Of a stretch of DNA of 64,000 nucleotides, positions 10,942-50,589 are shown piece by piece. Each line of letters opens with the position of its first letter. The stretch's first letter is position 1. The notes under the pieces were generated by a model. It worked only from the letters and a program-made list of their open reading frames with translations. It was not told the DNA's origin and searched no databases. The stretch comes from Mytilus edulis (taxonomy: Eukaryota): NCBI RefSeq assembly GCF_963676685.1, contig NC_092349.1, positions 82,956,001 to 83,020,000 on the forward strand, read 5' to 3'. The translations under genes were made by a program, and so were the position numbers.

Positions 10942-11265
10942 GACTAATTTATGGTTCAGGAGACGGCATAATTAACGTGACAAGAACGACTAATTTATGG
11001 TTCAGGAGACGGCATAATTAACGTGACAAGAACGACTAATTTATGGTTCAGGAGACGGCATAATTAACGTGACAAGAACGACTAATTTATGGTTCAGGAG
11101 ACGGCATAATTAACGTGACAAGAACGACTAATTTATGGTTCAGGAGACGGCATAATTAACGTGACAAGAACGACTAATTTATGGTTCAGGAGACGGCATA
11201 ATTAACGTGACAAGAACGACTAATTTATGGTTCAGGAGACGGCATAATTAACGTGACAAGAACGA
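10942..11265. repeat. 46-bp minisatellite, 7 identical copies
   Basis: Unit gactaatttatggttcaggagacggcataattaacgtgacaagaac at 10942, 10988, 11034, 11080, 11126, 11172, 11218. Confidence 0.95.
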
Positions 11266-12460
11266 GTTAAATTAGTTTTATTAAAATGATTCTGAAAATG
11301 TTTGCCTTTTTTTCTTCTTCGAATATTGTTGGATACAATTTAAATTAGATGTAATCTAAGAATGCGGTTTATTACTTATGGCGTCAAACGGAGAAAGGAC
11401 ATGTGAAGTTTGCCCCCTGAATGTTTTCACACCAGAGCCATTTATTATTTAAAACAGAGAAAACTCACAGAATCACGAATGCCCTTAAATACTTTGAGAT
11501 CCTAAAACTGTAACCAAAATTTATATGCCATATCACAATCATGAATGAATGAAGATTCCAACTGCAAAGGTCTGCAAAAAGGTGTAACGCTAAAAAGATG
11601 GCAGTCATATATCATAGATTAGTATTTCAATTTATTTATGCAATTCCTGATCTTTATTTTTGACACTGAAGCTTGGAAATGTGATGAAAGAGGAAACTTT
11701 AATATTCTACTCGATTTTCTGCCTGAAAGAGAAGACATTAACTTGAGTTTTTGTAATTTAAAACAACTTTGTATTAAAACGTATAAAACTGGCAATGATG
11801 TTTTAATATTGTCTACAATTGCCATGTGAAGTGCTGCATAGCATTTTTCTATTGTCTGAGATTTATCTTAACATGTTGATTATCCTTTTTTTTTCTTCAT
11901 TAGATTCAGCTTCAAATGATGAAATAAAGGTTAATGGAGTTGTCAGTTTATTTTCATTCTATGAGTTTGACTGTCCGTCAGGTAGCTTTCGCCCCTCTCT
12001 TTAGGTATTAAAGAGTATTTTAAGTTTGAAACATATATTGGCGCTTCGAACATGAAACATCCCCTTCCCTGTTGTTTCTTTGAAACGTCTTTATTATTTC
12101 AGCTTATTTCCATGTATTCAAAATGGGATGATTCAAAATGCCAACACAATCCTAAAATCTTATAAACTTCTTAGCATATGGTAAAAGTGTTTATAAGTTT
12201 AACAGTATTTGGTAAGGTCGATGCAAAGTTTGATAAGCAAAATTTAACATAAGTAATATTTCACTTGCACAACTGATGTTTGCTAAATTGAAATATAGTT
12301 GACATTTATCTATAGTAATTGAGAAAATAATAAAATCATGAAAATGTAATATTTAGTTTTATAAGTTACTTAATCATGAATGTGATGCCAAGGGCAACTT
12401 GCAGTTACGTACGGACCGCTCAAAGTGTTGCCGATCACTATGAATAAGGATTCTTAACGT

Positions 12461-14261
12461 GCAGAGAGCGTGACACTCTCTCTATGTACACATATTGACC
12501 ACATGTGGCTGCAGAGAACATGACATTCTCTCTATGTATACATATTGACCACACGTGGCTGCAGAGAGCGTGACATTCTCTCTACGTACACATATTGACC
12601 ACACGTGGCTGCAGAGAGCGTGACACTCTCTCTATGTACACATATTGACCACACGTGGCTGCAGAGAGCATGACATTCTCTCTACGTATACATATTGACC
12701 ACACGTGGCTGCAGAGAGCGTGACATTCTCTCTACGTACACATATTGACCACACGTGGCTGCAGAGAGCGTGACACTCTCTCTATGTACACATATTGACC
12801 ACACATGGCTGCAGAGAACGTGACACTCTCTCTATGTCCCCATACTGACCACACGTGGCTGTAGAGAGCGTGACACTCTGTCTACGTACACATATTGACC
12901 ACACGTGGCTGCAGAGAGCGTGACACTCTCTACGTACACATATTGACCACACGTGGCTGCAGAGAGCGTGACACTCTATCTACGTACACATATTGACCAC
13001 ACGTGGCTGCAGAGAGCGTGACACTCTCTCTACGTACACATATTGACCACACGTGGCTGCAGAGAACGTGACACTCTCTCTATGTCCCCATACTGACCAC
13101 ACGTGACTGCAGAGAGCGTGACACTCTCTCTATGTACACATATTGACCACACATGGCTGCAGAGAACGTGACACTCTCTCTACGTACACATATTGACCAC
13201 ATGTGGCTGCAGAGAGCGTGACACTCTCTCTATGTACACATATTGACCACACGTGGCTGCAGAGAGCGTGACACTCTCTCTATGTACACATATTGACCAC
13301 ACATGGCTGCAGAGAGCGTGACACTCTCTCTATGTACACATATTGACCACACGTGGCTGCAGAGAACGTGACACTCTCTCTATGTCCCCATACTGACCAC
13401 ACGTGACTGCAGAGAGCGTGACACTCTCTCTATGTACACATATTGACCACACATGGCTGCAGAGAACGTGACACTCTCTCTACGTACACATATTGACCAC
13501 ATGTGGCTGCAGAGAGCGTGACACTCTCTCTATGTACACATATTGACCACACGTGGCTGCAGAGAGCGTGACACTCTCTCTATGTACACATATTGACCAC
13601 ACGTGGCTGCAGAGAACGTGACACTCTCTCTACGTACACATATTGACCACACGTGGCTGCAGAGAGCGTGACCCTCTCTCTATGTCCCCATATTGACCAC
13701 ACGTGGCTGCAGAGAGCGTGACACTCTCTCTACGTCCCCATACTGACCACACGTGGCTGCAGAGAGCGTGACACTCTCTCTATATCCCCATACTGACCAC
13801 ACGTGACTGCAGAGAGTGTGACACTCTCTCTACGTACACATATTGACCACACGTGACTGCAGAGAGCGTGACACTCTCTCTACGTACACATATTGACCAC
13901 ACGTGGCTGCAGAGAACGTGACACTCTCTCTACGTACACATATTGACCACACGTGGCTGCAGAGAGCGTGACACTCTCTCTATGTCCCCATACTGACCAC
14001 ACGTGACTGCAGAGAGCGTGACACTCTCTCTACGTCCCCATACTGACCACACGTGGCTGCAGAGAACGGGACATTCTATGTCCCCATACTGACCACACGT
14101 GACTGCAGAGAGCGTGACACTCTCTCTACGTACACATATTGACCACACATGGCTGCAGAGAACGGGACATTCTCTCTATGTCCCCATACTGACCACACGT
14201 GGATGTAGTCTAGAGAGCGTGACATTCTCTCTATGTCCCCATTCTGACTACAAGTGGCTGC
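12461..14261. repeat. 50-bp minisatellite, about 36 copies
   Basis: Unit gcagagagcgtgacactctctctatgtacacatattgaccacacgtggct with recurring variants. Confidence 0.95.
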
Positions 14262-14964
14262 AAATTGTACATACTGCAGCCAAACGGACGATCACCTTTA
14301 TCAAAGGTGATACTGGTGCGCTGCTTGTCGGAAGAAGCTAGACTAATGATTGACTATAATTCTATACCATAAGTCAACCCTCGGGTTACATGGTAATTGA
14401 AGCTATAATGTATCTGAGTTCTAGATACATGTTTCTTAGTACATAAACCAGATCATTTAACTTTGACATACATTTCAAATATATGTTCAGTACCGTAAGG
14501 GCAAACATATATGGCATTTGATGTCATGAAAGCAACAAGCATGAAAAGAAAAAGAAAAAACACTCGACAAATTTGCCATATATAGAATGTAAGGTAAACT
14601 AGGATCATGTGAAGGCGTAGGCATCAACTATTTGCCACTAGATAAAAACACACAAGCATGTAAAGGCATACGCATCAAATGTTTGCCACTGGACGTTCAT
14701 ATGATACTTTTCTAAAAGTAAGAGATGTCAACAGTGCAAGACAGATTATGTGCAGCAATAGGATATAGTAGTAACAACTGGTAAACATTCACAAGATTCA
14801 ATGAAACAAAACTTAAGCTGAAATACATAATGGAATAAGAAAAGAACATGTTCATGACTGACTGAACCTATTAGTAACATGGCAGGATCCAACAGTAGAA
14901 TAGGAATTGCCTTCACTTTCTTGAGAACATAAGTTCAACTCAATCTAGTATTTGTTTGTGTTAA

Positions 14965-26338: not shown

Positions 26339-27164
26339 CTAAAATAGATAACAGTCCTATTTGAAAAAGCATGTTGAAATGTCCTATTGTAATGTTTATT
26401 TGTGTATTTCTCTGTCCTGAATGTTCTTGCATTTATTTGTACTGTAGTCCTGTCATGTAATGTTGTCATTTTAGTGTTATATTTAACATTGCCATAAAAG
26501 CGTGAGGTTTGGCTAGCCACAAAACCAGGTCCAACCCACCATTTTTTCTTAAAATGTCCTGTATTAAGTCAGGAAAATGGCAGTTGTTATCTTATAGTTC
26601 GTTTCTGTGTGTGTTGCATTGTAGGTTTGGTTTTTTGATGCACTTCAGTGTTTCTGTTGTTTCTTATAGTTGATGTGTTTACGTCAGTTTTAGTAAGTAA
26701 CCCAGATTTGTTTTCTCTCAATCAATTCATGACTTTTAAACAGTGATATACTACTGTTGCCTTTATTTGCACTTACATGTATCAGTATTTGGCAGACAAT
26801 AACTTTAAATTAATGTTTCATTTTTTTTATACACGTAATAAAATGTGATTATTTTTAAATTGCTTTATAAATTGAAATAATCTGTTCAGTTAAGAATATT
26901 GGATGATATTGTTTTTAACTTTTAATCCAGATTCATGAAGTGCCACTAAAAAAATAACCGCTTACCAAACTTTTTCCAGTTTGAATGGTTTTACTCTAGT
27001 TACGTTTGAGGCCCTTTAAAGCTTGCTTTTTGGTTTGAGCCAAGGCTCTGTCTTGGAGACCGTACTTTGACCTTTAATGGTTTACTTTTACTAATTGTGA
27101 CTCGGATGGAGAGTTGTCTCATTGGCACTCATACCACATCTTCTTATATCTATTAAATACTTAC

Positions 27165-27452
27165 ACTTCTTTCTTCTACGTCATCATTCCGAGTCATGTG
27201 ACCAAAATTTATCACAATGAGATCAATTAGTTCCTGTTTTTCTCTACAACCATCGGTAGAAATATTTCGTTTCATTAGTAAACATTTTAAATCTTTAACT
27301 TTCCACTTAACAAGTTCCTGTCGTGTAAAGGTACCAGTCAGTAAGATACGACATTTCTTACACTGACGAAATGTCTCCTTATTCTGTCCTTTAAGTGATA
27401 ATCTATGTACACAATTTGAACAAAAACATCTTTCACACTCTCGACAAATTTT
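27165..27452 (-). CDS. RNF34: RNF34-like exon (FYVE-like zinc finger, first SAP-like motif)
   Basis: KICRECERCFCSNC...CKKC...WKVKDLKCLLMKRNISTDGCREKQELIDLI; ttttcAG / GTAAGT; 288 nt. Confidence 0.92.
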
Positions 27453-27926
27453 CTGAAAAACAAAATTTAACATACAATTACATTGTATTCTTTTATCTGT
27501 AATTATGGTTGTTATGCAAATGTAACTATAACATGTATAATATAATGATAACATAAATTTTACGATGGAATATGTCTGTTTAAAGAGTCAAATACATGTA
27601 TGGATGTGCTGACACTACTGAATGTGTTTAATAAGCCACTATTTTGTTTCTGAATTCTGGATTTTTTTATATGAGCCAACTTAAAAGTATCATCTAATTA
27701 TAACAATCAAAATGTTCACCAACAATGTTAAGTATACACAGTCACAAGAAAATAATAGAAAATAATCATAAATGGTTCTGAATACGTGTATACAATAATG
27801 AACTTAATACATGTTTGTAATATAAAACCTAATAATTAAAATTGTAGTTGCTCAAGCATGAATTGTAGGTCGTTGCAACAAAATATTATTTAATTGTTTT
27901 ATATTGAGTGAATTAAGTTGCATTAC

Positions 27927-32825: not shown

Positions 32826-33307
32826 AATGGTGTAACTAACACGTTTCTTGCTAGAAGTGGAAAATGAAAATTTCATCATTTTTTTTACTAGAATGGTTAT
32901 CTCCCCGTTTATTTCAATAATAGAATCAAACAAAAACTTCAATTTTAAATTTGTACTTGTGAATAAAGTATCAAAAAGGACACAATTCACTATTTTTCAT
33001 GATAATAAAAGTCTTACAAATTAATTGATAATTTCTTTCAAAATTTGCAGACTTCAACAAGGAACAAGACTGATTATTTACAGCTGAGACTACTATAACA
33101 CATAAGTAGTCTCAGTTTAGAGCAAAGTTATAACCCAAAATGGTGGTATACTGTTTTTCTAAATTATGCATATATTCCACCTACAGAAACACCAGTCTGC
33201 GTTATTTTACGGTCTTTTACGGTTTACAAATAAAGTTTATACTGTTGATGAATTTGAGAATTGACAAATACTAGGCGTATATATAAATCTTTTACATCAT
33301 CGTATCA

Positions 33308-36300
33308 GTTGTCAGATTAAAGAAGCTAGACTCCTAAAAGGAAAAAGAGGAAAAGAGGATGTAAATAATTTTAATGGTAAAAAGGTTTTTAAAAATGTAA
33401 AAACAGATAATTTTACAGTTTTACCCAAATTGAGCTGTATATACACAAATGCAGACCAGTTATTTAACAAGCTGCCTGAACTAACAGTACGAACACGAGA
33501 TGACAAACCAAAAATAATTGGTATCACAGAGGTTAAACCAAAAAATAATCGTTATAAACCAGGTATCTCAGAATATTCTTTAGCCGAGGTATCTGACTAC
33601 AACATGTTTGGTAAAAACCTAGACGTCGACACAGGCAGAGGTCTTTTATTGTACATAGATAAACAACTGGACGCATCACAGGTCCATATGAATACAGAAT
33701 TCCAAGAAAACTTATTTATTAAGATTAATTTAAATCAGTCAGACCAGCTATTATTAGGCTTGATATACAGGTCACCATCAAATAGATCACAAGAGTACAC
33801 TAAACAATTAAATTTACTTACTACTGAAGCGTGTAATAAAGGCTACTCACATATCTTAATAATGGGAGATTATAATTATCCAGAAATAAACTGGGATAGT
33901 TGGAATTCACCAGGTGATAGTACAGAAAGTAATGAATACAGATTTTTAGAAAATCTACAAGAAAATTTCTTATTTCAACATGTTACAAGACCAACAAGAT
34001 GGAGAGGCACCAATACACCGCATACCCTGGACCTGATTTTAACCAATGAGGAGAATATGGTCTCAAATTTAGAATACCAAAGTCCACTAGGGAAAAGTGA
34101 TCACTGTACCATGAAATTTGACTTCAATTGCTACACAAATATTAAAAGCAAACCTAAATTAATTAAATTATTCAGTAAAGGAAACTACATAAAAATTAAA
34201 GAAGAATTAAATAAAATTAAATGGCCAGAATTACTACAGAAAGAAAATGATATAAATGAAAACTGGAAATCAGTTTTAAGTATAATCCAAGATATGGACA
34301 AAAAGTATATACCAACAAAAGAAAGGAAACAAATCGGTAGAGGGAAAAATAATTTCCCAATGGACAAAAACACCATAGATAAAATTAAAAGGAAAAACAT
34401 CCTGTCAAAAAAGATTACCCATAATAACGACCCAGAAGTAAGGAAGGAATACAATAAGATAAGGAATCAAGTAAAAAGTAGGGTAAATAAGTTGAAGAGG
34501 GAATATGAGAAAAATCTATCAGAAAAAGCTAAAGAAAACCCTAAAGCTATCTGGAGCTATATCAAATCAAAAACAAAAACCAAAGAAGGAATTGGGGACT
34601 TACATTTGGATCCAGAAGACACAAAATCAGATAAAAACGGAAGATAACAGCAAAAAGGCCAAATTACTAGTAGAATACTTTTCCAGTGTCTTCACAAAGG
34701 AACCTGACGGCAAGGTACCATCACCAACGCCTGTATTAGTAACTAATGATATGCCATATCAAAAAATTAAGGAAGAAGTAGTGCTGAGACATTTAAATGC
34801 ATTAAAAATAGACAAATCTCCAGGGATGGATAAACTACACCCCAGACTGTTAAAAGAGATCGCTGAATCATTGGCAAAACCTTTATGTATCATTTATAAT
34901 CAATCACTTGAAAGTAAGACTGTACCTAACGATTGGAAGAATGCTATGATAAGTGCAATATTTAAAAAGGGTAATAAGTCACTAGCCAAAAACTATAGAC
35001 CAGTCAGTTTGACATCAGTAGTATGTAAAATAATGGAGAAAATATTACGTGAATTTATAATAGAGCATATGAAAAAGAACAACCTATTCTCTAAAAAGCA
35101 ATATGGATTTATTGCAGGAAGGTCAACTGGTCTCCAATTATTAGAAGTGATTGATAAATGGACAGAGGCACTAGATCAAGGATTAGACATAGACTGCATT
35201 TATACAGACTTTATGAAGGCCTTTGATAAGGTACCACATAAAAGATTAATAGCCAAAATCAAAAATCTAGGTGTCCACGAGGATATAGTAGGGTGGATAA
35301 CGAGCTTTTTAGAAGATAGGAAACAAAAGGTCGTAGTGAATGGTGAAGAGTCAGACTGGGCTAACGTTACATCTGGGATACCCCAAGGATCAGTATTAGG
35401 ACCACTACTATTTGTTTTATATATAAATGATCTCCCAGACCAAGTAGATTCTGATGCATACCTATTTGCAGATGACACTAAGATCTTCAGAATAATTAAA
35501 ACACAAAATGACAGACAAATTTTACAAGAAGATCTAAATAAGATGGAATCCTGGAGTGACAAATGGCTACTAAAATTTCACCCAGAAAAATGTAAATATA
35601 TGAAAATAAGTAAGAAATCTAATAGCACTGACCATCCACCAATCTATAACCTACTAAATCAGCCTATAGCACAAGTTAAAGAGGAAAAAGATATCGGAGT
35701 CCTCATTGATGCAGAACTCACATTCGAAAACCACATTAGTGAAAAAGTGAACAAAGCAAACTCCATATTCGCAGTTCTTAGAAGAACATTTAAATACCTG
35801 GGAATAGAAACATTCATGCCACTATACAAAACCATGGTTAGAACACACCTAGATTATGCCAGCTCAGTCTGGTCCCCATACAAAAAGAAAGATATAGACA
35901 AAATAGAAGGTGTTCAAAGAAGGGTAACAAAACAACTACCAGGGCTGAAAGACATGAGCTACCCAGAGAGACTAAAAAAACTAGGCTTACCTACATTATC
36001 CTATAGGAGAATAAGAGGAGACATGATCGAAACCTTCAAAACAATGAATGGATACTACGACAAAGAAGTTAGCTCATTTTTAAGAAAGGCAGAAGATTCT
36101 CAACAAAGATGTAGTAGTAGGACAAACAGCAATAAAGTAGTTCATCAAAGATTCCAATCTAATATCCGTAAACACTCTTTCTCTGTTAGAATTGCTAAAA
36201 CCTGGAACAAACTACCAGATAAAATAACAAAGTCACCATCGATAAATTCATTCAAAAATCGACTAGACAAATATTGGTCAGACGAAGAATTATACTATAA

Positions 36301-36430
36301 TGACTATAGAGCAGAAATATCCGGAAGTCACGGTCAAAATAGTATAAGAAACACATTAAATTACGAGTCTGGTGAAGAGGAACCTTGAGGGATCCTGTAC
36401 TGGAAATCAACTATAAGTAACTATAAGTAA
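33308..36430 (+). mobile_element. CR1-clade LINE, 5'-truncated (no ORF1), ORF2 APE endonuclease + RT split by one frameshift
   Basis: APE motifs (YTNAD, GITEVK, MGDYNYP, LDLILTN, SDH) in 33430-34647; RT motifs (DFMKAFDKVPH, SGIPQGSVLGP, LFADDTK) in 34505-36388; 3' tail (aactataagt)x2; candidate TSD gtatca 33302-33307 / 36431-36436. Confidence 0.92.
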
Positions 36431-38924: not shown

Positions 38925-39029
38925 GGAACATGTGAAGCTATTGTGATTATAAAACATAATTCCCTGGTAAATTCCCTGGTAAATTACCAGGGAATTATGT
39001 TTTATAATCACAATAGCTTCACATGTTCC
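38925..39029. repeat. Perfect inverted repeat, 46-bp arms, 13-nt loop
   Basis: 38925-38970 is the exact reverse complement of 38984-39029. Confidence 0.95.
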
Positions 39030-39630
39030 GTAAAGGATAAATTGTTAAATAATTATCTATTAAAAGGAGATATTTCAGAGGAAACTTATATATTGAAAGT
39101 GGACAAAATGAACTCGTCAAAAGTTTCAGAGTGTATAAAAGACAGTAAAGAAATGGGTCAAAATTTGGATTTTACATACATGTACATTGTACATGATATT
39201 TGGATTTTGAAAGAACTCCAAAAGACAATAACCCTGAAATCTGATATATATTAATTTGTGCACCTCTTAATGAACATGAGGAAGTACATTTATATTTATT
39301 GTTGTTAAATTTAAATCTCTATGTGACTTTGTGTTAAAGGTGCATATTACCTGTAAACTTAGGAGAAGCCATACTTAAAGGAACACAATCTTTGCCTCCT
39401 ATCTACCTGTGTACTTTTTTTTGTAATTGTCAAGTGTTTCCCAAAATAGCATGTTACTTATATAATGACCTTTAACTACATTTCGGGGTTTCTCTGGATT
39501 TAACCAATGTATATGCAGGTCAAGGATAGATACAGAATAAAGATAAAAATACTAACATTGTGATAATTTGGATGTAATTGTTGTTTTCAATAGTAGTTTT
39601 ATACCAGACGGCATAAACTAAACAGGAGAC

Positions 39631-40474
39631 CAGTGTGAGCTCTTATGTATTTTACCTCCCACCAGAATCTCTTAGTATATGATTTGTGGTTTTTCACCAA
39701 GGCAAGTCCTAAGTACATGTATTTCTAAATCAGAAGGGTAAAAGTTGAAATTTGCATTTGTATATTGCAGTACAAATGAGAATTTCAGATTTAGATAGTA
39801 ATTTAAACTTTGTCATTTAAACACTATTTACCATGTTTACTGGATAGTTATATTACTCCAAGTGGAGATAACTCAATATTTTTGAAATGCCAGAACTGTC
39901 TTCATTTAGAAATGAATTTTCTTTGTTTTATATATTAGCACCTATATATATATTAGCACACTTAACAACAGGCACATGAAATTTGACATAGCATTGGAAT
40001 TTCTCTACTGGTAATACATTTGTATCTCAAATATGTGGTTTTTCCTATTAATATACATGTATATTGATTCACAATGTAGATTAAAGCCATAATTTCAGAA
40101 AAAAGTTTATATTTATAACAGCTTTCTCTGTAAGGATGGGCAAACAAAAAGTATGACACATTTACATTATATAGATTAACTAGACATATGTACTAAATAC
40201 CTTTTATGTTCAGTTCAAGAAAGTATTTAAAGAGAAAGTTGTAAAAAAATAAATGGCAAAAAACTTGACCAGTAGGTAGGGTAAATATAGGAAGCCTAGG
40301 ACATAACCCTGAAAAAATACACAATTTGAATAAAATGAAAAATTTCATTCAGTATATTACTTGTTCTGAACAACACCTGTTCAAAGGTCTCAGGTGTGTC
40401 ATCTGTTTCATACCTGCTAATTATTTATAATCATTGATTAGTATAAACACCATACAGAAATCAAAATATTGATG
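39631..40474. repeat. Left copy of ~850-bp direct duplication flanking a LINE
   Basis: Collinear with 43775-44654 from cagtgtgagctc to aaatattgatg. Confidence 0.95.
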
Positions 40475-43400
40475 AATGAATGAATGAATGAATCTTTATT
40501 TTCTCCATGTATATGAAGATTTTGCATACAAAAAGAAATTAATAATTACTCACACAATAAACAAAATATCATACATTTTTTGATAAATACCCAATGAAAA
40601 AAAAAAAAAACAAAAAAAAAACCAACAACATATTTAGATAAACACACAATACACATATTCCAGTAAACACAACAAAAACACAATGTTTTTCAATCAAAGT
40701 CTATTCAAAATTCAAAATTCAACCTGTTTTCAAATAATACATGTCTGAATTTTTTAAACATGTGGTAAACATGTTTTGCTATGTAATACATCATTCAAGA
40801 CCAATCTATAGGATCGAGATCGTATACTATATCATTAACAGCTCCTAATAGTACTTCAAGAAGGTCATCGTCGTCTAAATTGAAAATGTCCACAGATTTT
40901 TGAATGGGAAGTTCATCTACAATTTTATAAAACATAACATTTCTCTCTGTTAATAGAACATGACACTCCATGATTAAATGTTTAATGATATCAAGAGACT
41001 GTTTGTTACATAGAGTACATGTAGCTTTCTTAATGGCTGCCGATCCTAAAGTCACAAGTACTAGCAGTTCGAGTTTTGCATCGGGATATAAAACTGTCAA
41101 CCGAATTAATCTATGTTCACAGAGGGTAGGGTGAGTTTTGGAATACCTTTTGAGTTCATTTCTATTTTCTAAATTACTTTTCCATCTGTTCTCTTCATAA
41201 ATTTCAATAGACTGACGGACAATTTTCGACCACAGCACTTTTTCTGGTATGTAATCCTCATTTACATAGGTTAGAAGAAAGGAAAGAAAATAGATCGTAT
41301 TTAACCAGAGTTGTTATAAGATTATAGGTTATAGAGTGTTCGGCATTTTCATCCAGAATAAATTGACTGATGCACATGTTGAACAATTTTTTATGAGTTG
41401 TGCCCGATTTACTCCTACATAATCGCCCAAAGAATAAAAGTTTGAATTTGTCGATTACAGCTTCCAATGACCATAAACCAAGGTTGCTTGTAGTTGAGTC
41501 CGTTGGTGAATATTTGTCCATACACTGTATATATCGCGCAACATATCGTTGTGTTCTTTCTAAAAGTTCTATTTCAGAATTAGAGAGTTGTCCCCATACT
41601 TTGTAAGAGTACAATGCTGTAGGAAGAACAAAACGCTTCCATATTAACGTGTTTGTAATCGGCGTAAGGCCTTTCGGGTTTACTCCAGCACTATACAATG
41701 AATGTAGATTTTTCTTCAACTTCTTAGCGGCATTTTTTGTCCTTTCAAACGTTTTATTATTGTTAGTTATCAATGTACCAGCATAAATTGTATCCGTTTT
41801 ACACGCTATTTTTGTATTTCCAAGCTTAATGTCAACATCTGTATTATTATTAAAAGCCAAGACACAACTTTTTGTTCCGTTATATTTAAGTCTCCATTTA
41901 CAAGCATAAGTTTGTACACAGTCGAGAAGACCTTGTAGACCTTTTGGCGACGCACTAAGAAGGGTTGTGTCGTCCGCAAGAAGAATGGCAGGAATGTTCA
42001 AATAACCAATTCGTATTCCACAATTTGTCGAAATCAGCTGTTATATTAAGTCATTTATGTACAAAGAGAATAGCCAAGATGAGAGTACTCTCCCTCGCCC
42101 TACACCCTGAGAAATGGAGAAATTGTCACTAGTAAGTCCATTATATTGTACATGTGCACTAGCAGATTTGTAAGACATGAAAAGTATGTTCCATAATTTA
42201 CCAGTTACACCGATTTCTTTTAATTTCAGAAAAAGTCCATAGTGCCAGATCTTATCAAACGCTTTCTCGTTATCTAGAAAACCAACATAAAGTTTAGATT
42301 TACTTTTCATAAACACGTTAATACATTCTTTGAGTGTGTATAAAGCGGGGATAGCACCATGTTCGGGAACAAATCCAAACTGTAAAGGATCAGGAAAAGT
42401 CTTATCAAGTGCAGTAAGCATTTTATTTATTCGACGAAGGACTGTTTTGTCATGTAATTTTCCAAATACGGATGTTAGGACAATAGCTCTGTAACTGTTC
42501 GGATTACTCTTGTCTTTGTTATTTCCTTTATATAACGGAATAATTATGCCATGTCGATATAGTAATGGAATATATTCGCATTTAAGTATAATATTAAAAA
42601 TATAACAAATCCATTTCAACAAGGTATTACCACCGTATATAATATGTTCGTTGCATACATAGTCCAGTCCTGGAGCCTTACCACATTTTAAAGTTTTAAT
42701 TTTGCTCATATATTTCATCTTCAGTGTAGGGCACATCGAAAAAAGCATTAAACGGTTTTCTAATTTGACTGCTATATTCACGATTTTTTTTTTTTTTCTG
42801 TGACATCCATATAAAAAGGTTGATCAAAATTGTCATTTTCATGTTCATTAGGAGTATACAAATCACTAAAATAGGTACTCCACAACTTGCAAATATCCCC
42901 GTGATTAGTAGCTGTATTTCCATCATAATTCAGACAAGTTGCTGGCGATTTTTGTTGTCTATCCTTTGCACTACACGATAAAATTGTCCTATGTCCATTT
43001 CGGCTGCTTTTTGCACATCAGCAAATTTTTCAGATTCCCATAATCGCTCTGTATTACGTTTATGCTTTCGAAATTCTCTTTTCTTATCTTTATACTGTTT
43101 ATAAGAAATATTGTCGTTGTTTCGTGTTTGTCCCATTGACAGCCACGTTTTACGAGCTTGTCGTTGCTCATTATGGTAATAATCTAAGTTGTTACTTTTC
43201 CAGTACGGTTTTAAATAGTGTCTAAATTTTCCAGTGGGAATACAAGAATTTGCAGCAATATGCACAACATTTTCAATATTTGAGTTTATATGTTCTATGT
43301 AATTTTCGTTTATTTCACACGAGTTCAAAGGTAAAACTTCAAAATTTAGTAATTTGTCTAGTTCTGTTTGATAATATTTCTTCTCCCATTCATCACATCT

Positions 43401-43774
43401 CGACCACAATAGAACTTTACGATAAAGATGAAATTTATTTGATGTATTACATAGCAAATTCATATCTAAGAAAATCAAAACAGGATAATGATCTGAAACA
43501 TTAAATGGACAGTCATTTCTGACTTCTAAATTTGTAAAGCCATTACAAAAGAATTCTGGAATGAAAATAAAATCAATCATAGTTTTACGTGTCATGTCTT
43601 TAGACCTAAATGTAAAATCAGGGCCTTTACGACCGGACATCAATGGGACAGGAGATAAATTATTTTTTGTAATGAAGTCTTTGACATTTTTTGATTTACT
43701 ACTTAAACTTGTTACTGCAATATCAGTATTAAAATCACCACCAATTACTGTTACACAATCAACTGACATTCTAT
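40475..43774 (-). mobile_element. 5'-truncated, disrupted LINE (RTE-X-like; partial APE + RT + C-terminal zinc knuckle)
   Basis: IGGDFNTD / IDFIF / SDHYP (APE); KAPGLD, QFGF, FLDNEKAFD, QGVGRGRVLS, LLADDT (RT); CTLC..H....C; AATAAA then (ATTC)n tail at 40500-40472; several stops and frameshifts. Clade is inferred. Confidence 0.88.
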
Positions 43775-44654
43775 CAGTGTGAGCTCTTATGTATTTTACC
43801 TCCCACCAGAATCTCTTAGTATATGATTTGTGGTTTTTCACCAAGGCAAGTCCTAAGTACATGTATTTCTAAATCAGAAGGGTAAAAGTTGAAATTTGCA
43901 TTTGTATATTGCAGTACAAATGAGAATTTCAGATTTAGATAGTAATTTAAACTTTGTCATTTAAACACTATTTACCATGTTTAGTTTGTTTACTGGATAG
44001 TTATATTACTCCAAGTGGAGACAACTCAATATTTTTGAAATGCCAGAACTGTCTTCATTTAAAAATGAATTTTCTTTGTTTTATATATTAGCACCTATAT
44101 ATATATTAGCACACTAAACAACAGGCACATAAAATTTGACATAGCACTGGAATTTCTCTACTGGTAATACATTTGTATCTCAAATATGTGGTTTTTCCTA
44201 TTAATATACATGTATATTGATTCACAATGTAGATTAAAGCCATAATTTCAGAAAAAAAGTTTATATTTATAACAGCTTTCTCTGTAAGGATGGACATTTA
44301 TAACAGCTTTCTCTGTAAGGATGGGGAAAACAAAAAGTATGACACATTTACATTATATAGATTAACTAAACATATGTACTAAATACCTTTTATGTTCAGT
44401 TCAAGAAAGGATTTAAAGAGAAAGTTGTAAAAAATTAAACAGCAAAAAACTCGACCAGTAGGTAGGGTAGGAGGCCTAGCACATGACCCTGAAAAAATAC
44501 ACAATTTGAATAAAATGAAAAATTTCATTCAGTATATTACTTGTTCTGAACAACACCTGTTCAAAGGTCTCAGGTGTGTCATCTGTTTTATACCTGCTAA
44601 TTATTTATAATCATTGATTAGTATAAACACCATATAGAAATCAAAATATTGATG
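43775..44654. repeat. Right copy of ~850-bp direct duplication
   Basis: Matches 39631-40474 with scattered substitutions, a 9-bp insertion and a ~29-bp internal duplication. Confidence 0.95.
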
Positions 44655-45442
44655 TATTGATGACAACTCAAGTCTAGGAATTGATGCATGAGAAATGAAG
44701 ACATATATATTGTTATGTTCAGTAGATTATAGATTTCTGTTATTTTGACACATTTTGATGTTTGTTTCTAATAAAGTAAAATAATTACTAGTTTTGACAT
44801 GTTTAAATATAATTATATAATAAAGCTCATTGATCTCTATTGATTATTGGAGTAATTTAAAGATTAAAATTTTGTTGGTATATTAAGATGAGACATTTTC
44901 TTGTACCATATATGGTAGGTTTTCAATACAGATTGGAGTTTCTAAAAATGCATGCCAAACTATGTTAATATTTGAAGTTTTCAGATACATGTACCAATGA
45001 AATTTGATATCTGAGAAGAATATATCATGATGAATGTATTTTTGATATTAAACGATTATCCGTAGACTCCTATTTCCAGATCTGTTTGCCCCATTTTCTA
45101 AATGACATGGTTTTAAGGTTGTTACCTTTATAGAACTAAATAAAAAGTATGTATTTCCTTAGGCATGTTAGGCAATTGATTTCATGTTTGGCCTGTAACA
45201 CAAAATCCATAAAAATTGACACTCCTGGAAACTGAATTGCTTTGTTTGCATCAGTATTACTTTTTTCTTCTTCTGAGGCTTACAGAAAAAAGTGCTTGAG
45301 AAGCTTGTTGACATGTCAGATTTTAGTTGGTGTGAAAATAATTTTAACATTTACCCACAGTATGACAGTATCACTTTAAGTGCAATTTTCTTGATTTTTT
45401 TCAGGAATTGAAGCCATGATATGATAACAAGAAACTGTAACC

Positions 45443-45655
45443 ATGGAAAATACACAAAATATTGGTCTAACAACAGTTACCAACCCTTCACCTGGACAAG
45501 TGACAAATTATAATGCTAAACCATATCATATGCAGCCCGTCCAGACTAGTGGTGGGCGTGACCTGGCTTCTGATTTAGTATGGCAGCGTGATCCAGACTG
45601 TTCTAGGGATCCTAATGTTGGTAACCATGGTAATCCAATGATGGTTTCACAAGGG
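45443..45655 (+). CDS. C2H2 zinc-finger protein, first coding exon (exon begins at 45405)
   Basis: Kozak-like accATGG at 45443, acceptor ttttttcAG upstream, donor GGG|GTATGT; 71 codons, phase 0. Confidence 0.8.
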
Positions 45656-46267
45656 GTATGTAAACATAAACAATTTATACAAACCATTGATCAGTATCAC
45701 TTTACTTTATATTTTTGGCTCTAGATTTTATAAGAACATGATTGAGACAGATAGTGCTTGGAAGGGATTTTTTAGGTAACCTGCTTTAGTAATACAAGAA
45801 AATGCATTTGCTACCCAGATTTGACTATGGCTCCTGCTGTTAAGCTCAGCCACTTAGAGTTAGACCAAATCTTAGCAGTTTGGTTTTGTAAAAGGAGGAT
45901 GCCTTTTGTATGAGCAGAGTAATAATCACAACCAAGGATTTAAGAGTCAAATTTCAATTAAAAAATATATACACATTTGTATTTCAGGAGTGTAACAACA
46001 TTTGGAAAAAAAAGGTGATTTGGTGAAGGACAGTAGACTTTAACAGACTAAAGAATTGGTGAAATCACAAAAATACGCTGAGGAAAAATCAAGATGGAAA
46101 GTCCCTAATTGAATCGCAAAATCAAAAGCTCAAACACATTAAACGAATCGATTCTAATTGTATTCCCACTTAGTTGAAATCTATTATAACATATGATTCT
46201 CTAAGGTCTGTTCTAGAAGATAAGTTTAGCATATATATCGTATGTTAATATTTGAATTGTATTTTAG

Positions 46268-48464
46268 GTACATGTTCCAGTAAACCAGACACAAATGATG
46301 CCAATTAATCAACCACATGGTGTTCATCAGATGCAGGGAGTACCAATGAGTCAGCCACAATCAGTTCCAGTAAACCAGTCACCATCAGGGTACCCTGTTT
46401 CTAATGTTAATAATACTCTACCTCATAATCCTGCAGGTTACCAGTATCAAGGGCAGACAACTACGGTCCCAAATGCCTCTGGCGATCATGCTCATGTTGG
46501 TATGGGTCAGCCATTTCAGATGCCACAGGGAAATGTTTACCCTGGGATGAGACCCCAAGGTTTAGGGAATTATTTGCCAGTCACAAGTCATCAGCAACTC
46601 ATGATGGATACTGACGGAAATAGAATTCAACAAAATAACATGATGCAACAGAACATGGCAATGACAGGGTACCAGATGCCTCCTCAAAATATGGTACCAG
46701 TACAATACAATCAAAATTTTGTACAGGGAGGTAATATGAATGGCAACACACAGTATATGAATATGCGCCCCCCTACAACAACTGTTCAGCACCAGCAACA
46801 GCATCAACCACAGCACCAACATCAGCAAGCTAATTACAATCATCCACGTCTCGTACCATATAATCAGCAATTAATGAATGCTCCGAGAACACAGTATAAC
46901 AACCCTAGACCACCAGTGGTTCAAACACCTACTTTGAATATAATGGCAGCCAACCAGATAGCTCAAAAACCAACAAATCTTAATTTACCATCTAGTACTC
47001 AAGTTTCTTCACCAGACACAGGTTATCCAACTGTCCAATCACCAACTGTCGCTTCACCAGGGACGGAAAGTGTTAAATCACCAACATATGTTTTCATGTG
47101 TAATAAATGTAACTATGTGACACCACACCGCAGCTCATTTAAAACCCACTACAGTAGTCATATACAATACAAACCGTATCAATGTGCCTACTGCGATCAC
47201 GCTACTATTATGAAACAGCCAATGCAAAAACACGTCAAAATGAAACATGCTATTGAGGATTCCGAGGGATTCTCTTATGAAAGTGATTCAAAAAAAGAAA
47301 ATATCATAGAATTCTTCAGCAATCAATGTAGGTCAACTATGAATTTGGAAGAAGCTAAAAAATACCTGGATAAGTATGAATCTGGTGAAAAACTAAAAAG
47401 CGGACCAGCAAAGCGTAAACTGTCTATGGAAGAGAGAGAGAAGGATTCTTCAAAGAGAAAAAAGTCTTGGCCTGAAGCTGGAGATGAAAGTTATCAAAGT
47501 GAGGCTTCATTAGGTCAATCAAAATCTCCAATTAGCCCAAGAAAACTCACACACTGGAAGCAGGGCGTTACATTTGAACATAAAAATCAGGATACAAAAA
47601 CTAAAGTAGGACGTGGTCGATCTATAAAATCTTTTACCAGTTTTGCAAAACAGAAAAAGTTCATTACTTCAGGTGTTATGAAATGTCCATTTTGTGAATT
47701 CAAATCTGGATCACAGAAAGGTTTGAAAAGACATTGTAATTGGCGACATCTAGAGAAAAGATATAGATGTAACAATTGTGACTTTTCTACCTTCTTTCTA
47801 GAGGAGATGGAAGGTCATATCCAAAGAGATCATTGTGAAAGTTACCAGTTACATAGCAACGAAACAAGGAAATCTCCTGAAAAAACTGTTGGAAGACCGA
47901 GAAAGAACCTATCCAGTGCAGAAGAGACAACTCCTAAGACAGTTACCATTGACAGGTTTGCTGAAGATAATGCAGACGACAGTGGAAATGATGACATGCA
48001 GTTAAATTGTCCACACTGCAATTTTTCTTCAAATCCATTTGCCCTCAAGAGACATTTGTTCTTCTATCACAAAGAATGTGATTGGAAATGTAAGATTTGT
48101 GGATTTATTTCTGGCAGTAAAAAAGAACTTGTACGACATTCCAATAAGGCACATCCAAATACTCAACCAAACATTGTTCAAACATTTGCCGATATTTCTT
48201 CTCTGTTACCAGACAATGCTTCAGAGCAAGAGAAGGGAACTCCCCCTGATAAGGATATTGATGAAAATGAAAAGGTAGTGGGTAAACATAAACTAATTGA
48301 CCGTGATTATATCAAAACAAACAAGAAGCGAATGGTGTTAGGGAAAAAACGGGTTTCTAAGATCATCAATGATACCAGTGGTGAAGACAGACTACAAATT
48401 ATGAAAATTATAAGTGAAAGAAAGAAACAGAAACGTGGTAGAAAAAGGGAGGAAACAAAGAATG
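46268..48464 (+). CDS. C2H2 zinc-finger protein, main exon (Q/N/P/M-rich region, three pairs of fingers)
   Basis: ttttAG acceptor in frame with the 732-aa ORF; fingers CNKC, CAYC, CPFC, CNNC, CPHC, CKIC each with a His pair; donor G|GTAAGG, phase 1. Confidence 0.9.
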
Positions 48465-48924
48465 GTAAGGAAAATAGGAGACATTCCAGTTAAAGGTCAT
48501 GGACTTCAGAAATTTATATAAGTTTGCTATTCCATTTACTTCTAGTGCTAAGGATTTTAGAATAATAATTATTACAAAATGTAAATAGATATAAGTCTAG
48601 AAGATGTGGTATGAGTTCCAATGAGACAACTCTCCATCCAAGTCACAATTTGTAAAAGTAAACCATTATAGGTCAAGTACTGTCTTCAACACAAAGTCTT
48701 GGCTCACACCGAATAGCAAGCTATAAAGTCCCCAAAAATGACCAGTGTAAATCTATTCAAACAGGACAACTATCTAATTATTTAATCTATCATGTCTATA
48801 TAAAAAAAAACTAGTAACACTTATGAACCACATCAACAAAAGACAACCACTGAACATCAAGTTTTTTTTATGGCTATGCTTTATCTTGTTGATTCAAATT
48901 AAGATAAGCAAATCATTCAGAATC

Positions 48925-49210
48925 AATTATTATTGCATAGCAATATAATATTTCCCACAGAAAGTAACCAAAAGTTCTATTATTGCACTAGTGTAATAAA
49001 TCTTCAAAATTCATGACGTCATCAAAGACAAAATCTTAGTTTAAACCAGTTTTTACTTCAAATATCATATTGCTATACAATAAAAGGGTTATTGCATGAA
49101 TATTGGGGAATATTGTCTCTCGTAGAACATATATTGCACTCGCAAGCTCGTGCAATAAAAAATTCTACTTGGGACAATTTTCACCAATATTCATGCAATA
49201 ACCCTATATT
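48925..49210. repeat. Small palindromic non-autonomous element in intron
   Basis: Internal inverted repeat ggttattgcatgaatattgg (49088) / ccaatattcatgcaataacc (49184) with central tattgcac..gtgcaata hairpin. Confidence 0.45.
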
Positions 49211-49618
49211 ATTGTAATTTATCATATACTTAGTAGTTAATACAGATAAATTGCAACCATTCTGTATCAGCCATCCATCATAAATCGAGATCAGTCACGA
49301 TTGCAAACACCTTAATTGTATTACGTCATATCACTTGAAAAAACATCTACTTTAGGTTCTAATGTATATAATACAGTGTACAATTATGATATCGCAGAGC
49401 TCTTGGGATTATATTGGTGTCCCAGGCTTTGAGCAACAAATATGTTCGTCACAATATTTTTTATTACCACTAAAGAAATCACTACATGCATACATGCTTG
49501 TTTTCAGTTACAGTTATGATCAGTTTTATTAGCATTGGCACATCTCATTTAACAAGAAAGCAACCAAGTTATATTTACATATGAATAACATCATATACCT
49601 TTGTTTTCTAAATTTTAG

Positions 49619-50589
49619 ATCAGAACTCTTATGTTGTACGTCCAAAGAAACTAAAGATTGCCAGGATAGGATTTAGTTGTGTATACTGTACCTACGCTGC
49701 TCCTCTTAGGCATCAGTTACGACTTCATTGTTACGAAAAACACACTAAACATCCAGCTTGTTTGATGGAGTTTATAAATAGTACAATGGCTTTGGAAGAA
49801 CAAGAAGACTATGCTAGAGATAAGACAGAAGAGAAAAAGAGTCCGGAGAAGACGGGTAGTACTTTGGAGATAAATGCGAATAAACATGTCTCGGAGGATA
49901 TGGTAGTAAATTCTAGCAGTGAGAAGCAGGTAAAAGATATACAAGATTTTGAAGAAAAATCTGTCGAGGAGGGGGAACAAGACTCCAGTGAGAAATTAGA
50001 AGGAAAGAAAATCCAATCGATTGAAGCAGCAGATACAGTCAAAGAGAAGAAAAACAAATTAGAGGAATCTGTAATTGAAATAAGCTCTGCAGATGAAACA
50101 GAACTAGACATCACAATAGAAGATTCTGATTGTGAAAAGAAGACTGAAGGAGAAACAACCAAAGACCTCAAAGACAAGAGTAAAAATGAAATACAAAATC
50201 TTCCAGAAAACCCAAATACAGGAACAGATAACTCTATATCAAAAGTAGATGAAGATCAAAACAAAGAAGTTTTGACTTGTATGGAGAACATTCTTGCCAA
50301 TATTGGGAATGCAGACAATACTACAACAGAAAATGGTGCTAATGATTACATTTTACAAACTGATAAGTTTAATGGTCACAAATTTTCAAATCCTTTTTCT
50401 ACGCTTATCGTACAACTTAATTCCACCCAGTTATTAGTTAAAGATGCCTTTGAAGGAACACTTGATGATGTAGATATATATTTAGAAAAATATGGAGTTC
50501 GTACTCTTAACATGGATTCTCTTACTCCTAGACAGTTTTCATTGTTCATGAAAAAGTTTGGAAGTAATTTGCAGCAAATTGCAGCATGA
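49619..50589 (+). CDS. C2H2 zinc-finger protein, last exon (seventh finger, acidic region)
   Basis: ttttAG acceptor, phase 1 gives DQNSYVVRPKK...FSCVYCTYAAPLRHQLRLHCYEKH, continuing in frame into ORF 49762-50589; total about 1126 aa. Confidence 0.88.

Follow-up and report, generated by a model that had tools for sequence, protein, structure and literature searches.

The locus analysed here raises the question of why a LINE in the Mytilus edulis genome lies between two copies of a host segment of 844 and 880 bp, when the target-site duplication of a LINE is usually 7–20 bp. The window, that is, the whole stretch of 64,000 bp that was analysed (NC_092349.1, positions 82,956,001 to 83,020,000), carries the following features at this site:

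39631..40474, no strand: copy 1 of the duplicated target segment (844 bp), which adjoins the 3' tail of the LINE
39666..39701, plus strand: candidate 36-bp micro-exon with an AG acceptor and a GC donor, spotted by eye
40475..40495, minus strand: (ATTC)n tail of the LINE, with the 3' motif of the clade just before it, identified from the sequence
40475..43774, minus strand: 5'-truncated, disabled Proto2-clade LINE, 3.3 kb out of a 5.46-kb element
43775..44654, no strand: copy 2 of the duplicated target segment (880 bp), which adjoins the truncated 5' end of the LINE

The alignment agreed with the original prediction that the segment at 39631–40474 adjoins the tail and restarts at 43775, exactly at the truncated 5' end. 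The earlier estimate by eye of about 20 substitutions and small indels needed a correction: the alignment lists 20 substitutions, 3 of which lie beyond the end of the repeat, leaving 17 within it together with 4 indels (+9, +1, +32 and −6 in copy 2 relative to copy 1). No differences were found in the first 203 bp, which include the candidate micro-exon and its second copy at 43810–43845. Copy 1 has 3 bases in common with the register of the minus-strand tail at its junction, and copy 2 meets the truncated 5' end through a 2-base microhomology. Self-comparison of the window gave a single long direct repeat around the element, and there are no N bases in the window. A search of the 1.37-Gb genome with very common words skipped returned two matches to the segment, both at this locus. 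The possibility raised earlier that the 850-bp segment is a dispersed repeat or an LTR pair was rejected, as there are only these two matches and every element copy has its own flank repeat.

Exons of a C2H2 zinc-finger gene are located downstream of the insertion (45405–50589, plus strand) and an RNF34/RFFL-like exon upstream (27153–27587, minus strand), divergent from the zinc-finger gene; the insertion site may be a 5' intron of the latter. The window also contains a minisatellite with 36 copies of a 50-bp unit (12460–14262), 7 perfect copies of a 46-bp unit (10942–11265), and a MITE-like long inverted repeat with a central 12-bp tandem, seen by eye (38925–39030). A nearly intact CR1-type LINE with one frameshift lies at 33265–36388 on the plus strand, and 20 loci related to it served as a control.

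The longest copies of the focal family were 5.46 kb and encoded a 485-aa ORF1 with no Pfam hit and a 1,190-aa ORF2 with the domains PF03372 (AP endonuclease) and PF00078 (RT). The focal copy begins at position 2,173 of this element, inside the AP endonuclease, and retains the RT and a C-terminal Cys/His (zinc-binding) motif, with its reading frames interrupted by stops and frameshifts. Proto2 was first described in Repbase Reports and subscription journals. The RT of the focal family matched M.edulis_265_LINE in the published alignment of PMC10294476, where the tree-based class of that sequence is Proto2 of the RTE superfamily (Table S7), and the length of 5.46 kb fits the mean of 5.7 kb given for Proto2 in the available text of the same paper. 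Annotations of Mytilus species include close homologues of the RT. Dualen/RandI, which has two endonucleases, was rejected as an assignment: Pfam found only the AP endonuclease and the RT in ORF2, with no restriction-like endonuclease domain at E 0.1, and the clade is Proto2. On these sequence comparisons, the focal element was classified as a Proto2-clade non-LTR retrotransposon.

Flanking repeats were measured across family members, as the original prediction had proposed. The tail pattern, exact or with 1 mismatch, occurred at 33 places in the genome, which together with 5 more tailed copies gave 38 loci, all from one assembly. Flanking duplications of 80–4,652 bp were found at 10 of the 38 (9/37 when the focal copy is set aside); among the 16 youngest copies, 7 had one. 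By a strict test, in which the repeat had to start at the tail and end at the 5' end, 8 of 38 own flank pairs were positive versus 1 of 1,406 mismatched pairs. The other two cases were accepted by inspection: L086, with a duplication in two pieces (about 450 bp), and L068, an intact full-length copy with a 4,652-bp duplication at 99.94% identity (3 mismatches) that ends 9 bases before the 5' end. Two of the ten, L055 and L076, are weak cases with an identity of only 80%.

No long duplication was present at 28 of the 38 loci, and none of the 38 had a clear duplication of 7–20 bp, with one possible imperfect case of about 15 bp. Counted as negative in the family and sister surveys were L062 and L078, which lie in tandem arrays, and L056, L057, L117 and L118, whose repeats did not clearly abut the element. 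In L057, the 5' part is inverted and a 37-bp repeat lies further upstream. No longer duplication was found in the upstream 27–38 kb of L059, L073, L074, L061, L064, L083, L053 and L069. Genome searches with four duplication-free loci, one of them a sister copy, gave no nearby second flank copy; three of the flanks lie in other repeats, and two of the searches covered the best 40 candidates. The downstream flanks of L059 and L073 belong to other young repeat families (96–98% copies on many contigs) in which the elements were inserted. Of the sister copies described below, 10 of 20 were likewise without a long duplication, and insertion thus often ends otherwise.

Twenty loci of related families, with 28–58% ORF2 identity, were collected by protein search from the same assembly. 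Duplications of 107–3,335 bp were found at 10 of these 20 sister loci, eight of them at least 98.3% identical, and one further locus had a duplication of 34 bp. L113 was counted as positive, although a gap of 800 bp, occupied by repeat-like DNA, separates its repeat from the 5' end of the element. Two extra loci were also inspected, one of which had a duplication of at least 1,345 bp. The RT motifs of four sister families matched M.edulis_235, 154, 260 and 270, all classed as Proto2 (PMC10294476), while those of L113/L114 and L123/L129 had no hit in that alignment. A quick tree placed all sister families, including L113/L114, L123/L129 and L131, in one clade apart from the controls (SH-aLRT 95). 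All sister loci except L120, which is interrupted, carry a common 3' motif. This motif precedes differing microsatellite tails in L113–L132, L215, L216, L220 and L222, at a protein identity of only about 30–40%, and also occurs in metagenome contigs. The duplicated segments of L125, L127 and L132 contain parts of other LINEs (open frames of 295 and 874 aa) and, in addition, an open frame of 355 aa that carries Cys/His motifs. A metagenome scan of other species gave 80 loci, the best 11 of which were on contigs of 1.9–5.7 kb, too short to tell.

By the same method, a long abutting repeat was found at none of 20 CR1-type loci and at 1 of 20 L1/Tx1 loci, and 10 of the 20 L1/Tx1 controls had duplications of 9–17 bp. 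The difference between 10/20 sister and 1/40 control loci had a Fisher p of 2e-5, the loci of both groups being top-ranking protein hits and not random draws, with only about 1.7 kb of upstream DNA in view for full-length L1/Tx1 copies. The one positive control, L184 (G000:C9:7354841-7369840), is a full-length L1/Tx1 copy of the M.edulis_23 type with a 1,490-bp duplication at 99.8% identity; a spacer of 1.6 kb separates its two ORFs, ORF1 and ORF2. The duplication at L189, a truncated sibling, measures 16 bp; a 146-bp repeat beside it was rejected as a tandem repeat of the target. L184 indicates that the host permits long duplication outside Proto2 too, and it speaks for a reading in which long duplications are a host trait, produced by mussel germ-line repair on any long-lived insertion intermediate. 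However, the ratio of 1/40 to 10/20, and a pattern shared by Proto2 families whose protein identity is about 30%, make a host trait unlikely. Long duplications were present in 6 of the 8 Proto2 families sampled. The suggestion that this LINE family generates local duplications therefore holds in a stronger form than was proposed, and long duplication is likely a trait of the Proto2 clade, not a one-off. Proto2 elements likely duplicate host DNA as a routine part of inserting.

Seven different runs, all short-read contigs, were compared with the focal locus, and the following refers to the matches listed. A contig of run X17 joins 40255 to 44442, which corresponds to one segment copy without the LINE. 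The unique upstream flank continues into the segment in contigs of X2, X3, X10 and X18 (4/4 runs), and contigs of X15, X17, X1, X2 and X3 lead from copy 2 into unique sequence downstream. The expected empty allele was thus recovered: in other animals the allele is a single copy without the LINE, on the evidence of contigs of which no single one covers both flanks. The junction between segment and tail was found in 1 of the 7 runs, X18 (read to about 53%), which is possibly the source animal and hence not independent. In X10, one contig terminates precisely at 44654, possibly the site of a branch.

At least 5 of the 17 differing sites carry both letters among other animals (39869, 39909, 39978, 40183 and 40455 with their partners), two of them being heterozygous in X2 or X1; sites at 44435–44485 were omitted from this count, since the depth in X3 suggests a repeat there. 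The 2% divergence of the focal copies is therefore partly allelic and is no clock. The copy differences had originally been used as an argument against an assembly echo. They neither date the duplication nor exclude a haplotype mosaic. An assembly artefact, in which two haplotypes were joined through the LINE and the flank appears twice, would account for copies that differ at sites variable among animals, and it fits with the 5' junction (43774/43775), which was seen in none of the 7 runs among the matches listed. Against it, the repeats stop precisely where each copy is truncated, a point that differs from copy to copy, none was seen at 20 young CR1-type copies, divergence tracks element age, and there is no N gap. 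Moreover, the paired copies of young siblings are only 0–0.4% apart, below allelic levels and below the 2% of the focal pair. We regard an artefact as very improbable.

Copies derived from two alleles would also be given by unequal recombination between two independent insertions 844 bp apart or by insertion where the units of an older tandem duplication meet. However, the family numbers only a few tens of copies in the 1.37-Gb genome, and across its first 3 kb the focal LINE differed from one sibling at 1–5 positions per 300 bp, with no chimeric switch. A joint from the segment end back to the segment start, as in an older tandem, occurred in none of the 7 runs among the matches listed, and 20 further loci would be left unexplained. 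These events were judged the least probable explanation, with next to no weight. Since young siblings are 0–0.4% apart, the homologue is not as a rule the template at birth, and focal copy 2 was likely exchanged later with the empty allele, by crossover or conversion, which would explain the allelic letters. We consider it most likely that the focal 844-bp repeat is a giant target-site duplication made by the insertion itself, as around other Proto2 copies.

Duplication length rose with insert length. The Spearman correlation was 0.89 in the focal family (n=10, p=0.0005), 0.89 in its 6 young copies (p=0.02) and 0.74 across 21 loci (p=0.0001), age and length being partly confounded in this comparison. 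The median duplication was 2,617 bp in 9 full-length copies and 207 bp in 12 truncated copies. With a view fixed at 10 kb, long repeats are easier to find beside short inserts, which acts against this trend. The comparison of copy–copy with LINE divergence that had been proposed showed a correlation: the divergence of the paired copies tracked the distance of the element to its nearest sibling (Spearman 0.81, n=10, p=0.005), as is expected if paired copies start identical. Among nine truncated copies with a reference, six shared 1–5 bases at the 5' junction and three had none or a few extra bases; this level is close to chance for AT-rich DNA, and the microhomology is a weak clue. By inspection, the target sites loosely resemble the tail.

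The length scaling points to two processes on one clock. In the proposed mechanism, the element would nick one strand and reverse-transcribe from the nick, and it would make no second cut nearby. As the cDNA lengthens, host synthesis (likely replication-coupled or break-induced) would carry the reciprocal DNA end over the target. Both cDNA and end extension would stop when the ends join via 0–5 bases of microhomology, and one clock for both would yield the length correlation. As judged from the data at hand, the host-synthesis step by itself stands at about even chances. A second reading keeps the same insertion origin and supposes a long-lived cDNA intermediate, during whose lifetime the target is opened, by a helicase or by strand displacement, as far as an unrelated distant nick. 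Such a nick has been proposed for L1 in NER-deficient cells, where duplications have a median of 1,495 bp (PMC5223499), and it would likewise permit a link between time and length. On the other hand, mussel L1/Tx1 elements mostly keep 9–17 bp, which makes a general host defect unlikely, and the Proto2 protein would have to be the source of the trait. The sequence does not separate the distant nick from end extension; we hold the nick to be a credible but less favoured possibility. Returning to end extension, a broader proposal, placed slightly below even likelihood, is that Proto2, an old clade expanded in bivalves, would lack a coupled second-strand cut, with reverse transcription racing host copying of the target and longer duplications accompanying longer inserts. 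In molluscs, Proto2 would then be a permanent source of kilobase duplications in the germ line, cleanly excisable by flank recombination.

For the step in which LINEs cut and join the second strand, the duplication length of Proto2 is a measurable readout, and intact young copies exist for an assay. The 21 measured loci duplicate about 25 kb, a possible mechanism for part of the structural variation in mussels. Element loss via recombination between flanking copies is predicted. Annotation tools that seek duplications of 5–25 bp would call Proto2 elements duplication-free. Full-text literature searches gave no report of long duplications for Proto2/RTE-X or of scaling with insert length, their scope ending before Repbase Reports and subscription journals, where a prior remark is possible. 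The same holds for the available text of PMC10294476, which reports no LINE target-site duplications, and of PMC12477816, PMC5753468, PMC7846101, PMC11481361 and 10.64898/2026.02.10.705023.

Long target duplications are found in other LINEs. R9 is a site-specific rDNA element with another endonuclease type and a fixed duplication length. In bdelloid rotifers, R9 has a 126-bp target duplication as a family trait, as cited in PMC9977147, whereas mussel Proto2 has variable duplications of 34–4,652 bp and no fixed site. In the same text, more than half of the new insertions of Dualen-4b_cRei in Chlamydomonas reinhardtii had duplications of more than 50 bp, with a median of 900 bp and variable length, ascribed to two endonucleases, RLE and APE. 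Dualen thus resembles mussel Proto2 in its long flanking duplications of variable length. However, it represents one family in mutation-accumulation lines of an alga, whereas the mussel trait extends over at least 6 families in an animal germ line, with an AP endonuclease and an RT only; a link between duplication and insert length, as shown by mussel Proto2, was not found for Dualen in the parts of PMC9977147 available. Human L1 is an AP-endonuclease LINE with duplications of 0.1–6 kb, the same proposed mechanisms and a predicted loss by flank recombination in the available portions of PMC5223499 and 10.1101/2024.12.14.628481; giant duplications are known from cancer or engineered clones (10.1101/2024.12.14.628481). 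In these sources the human outcome is rare (no more than 10% in HeLa) or depends on a defect of the host, whereas for mussel Proto2 a long duplication is the commonest recognisable outcome in an ordinary genome in which L1/Tx1 is mostly normal. Giant LINE duplications are already known from Dualen, R9 and human L1 in repair-deficient or cancer cells.
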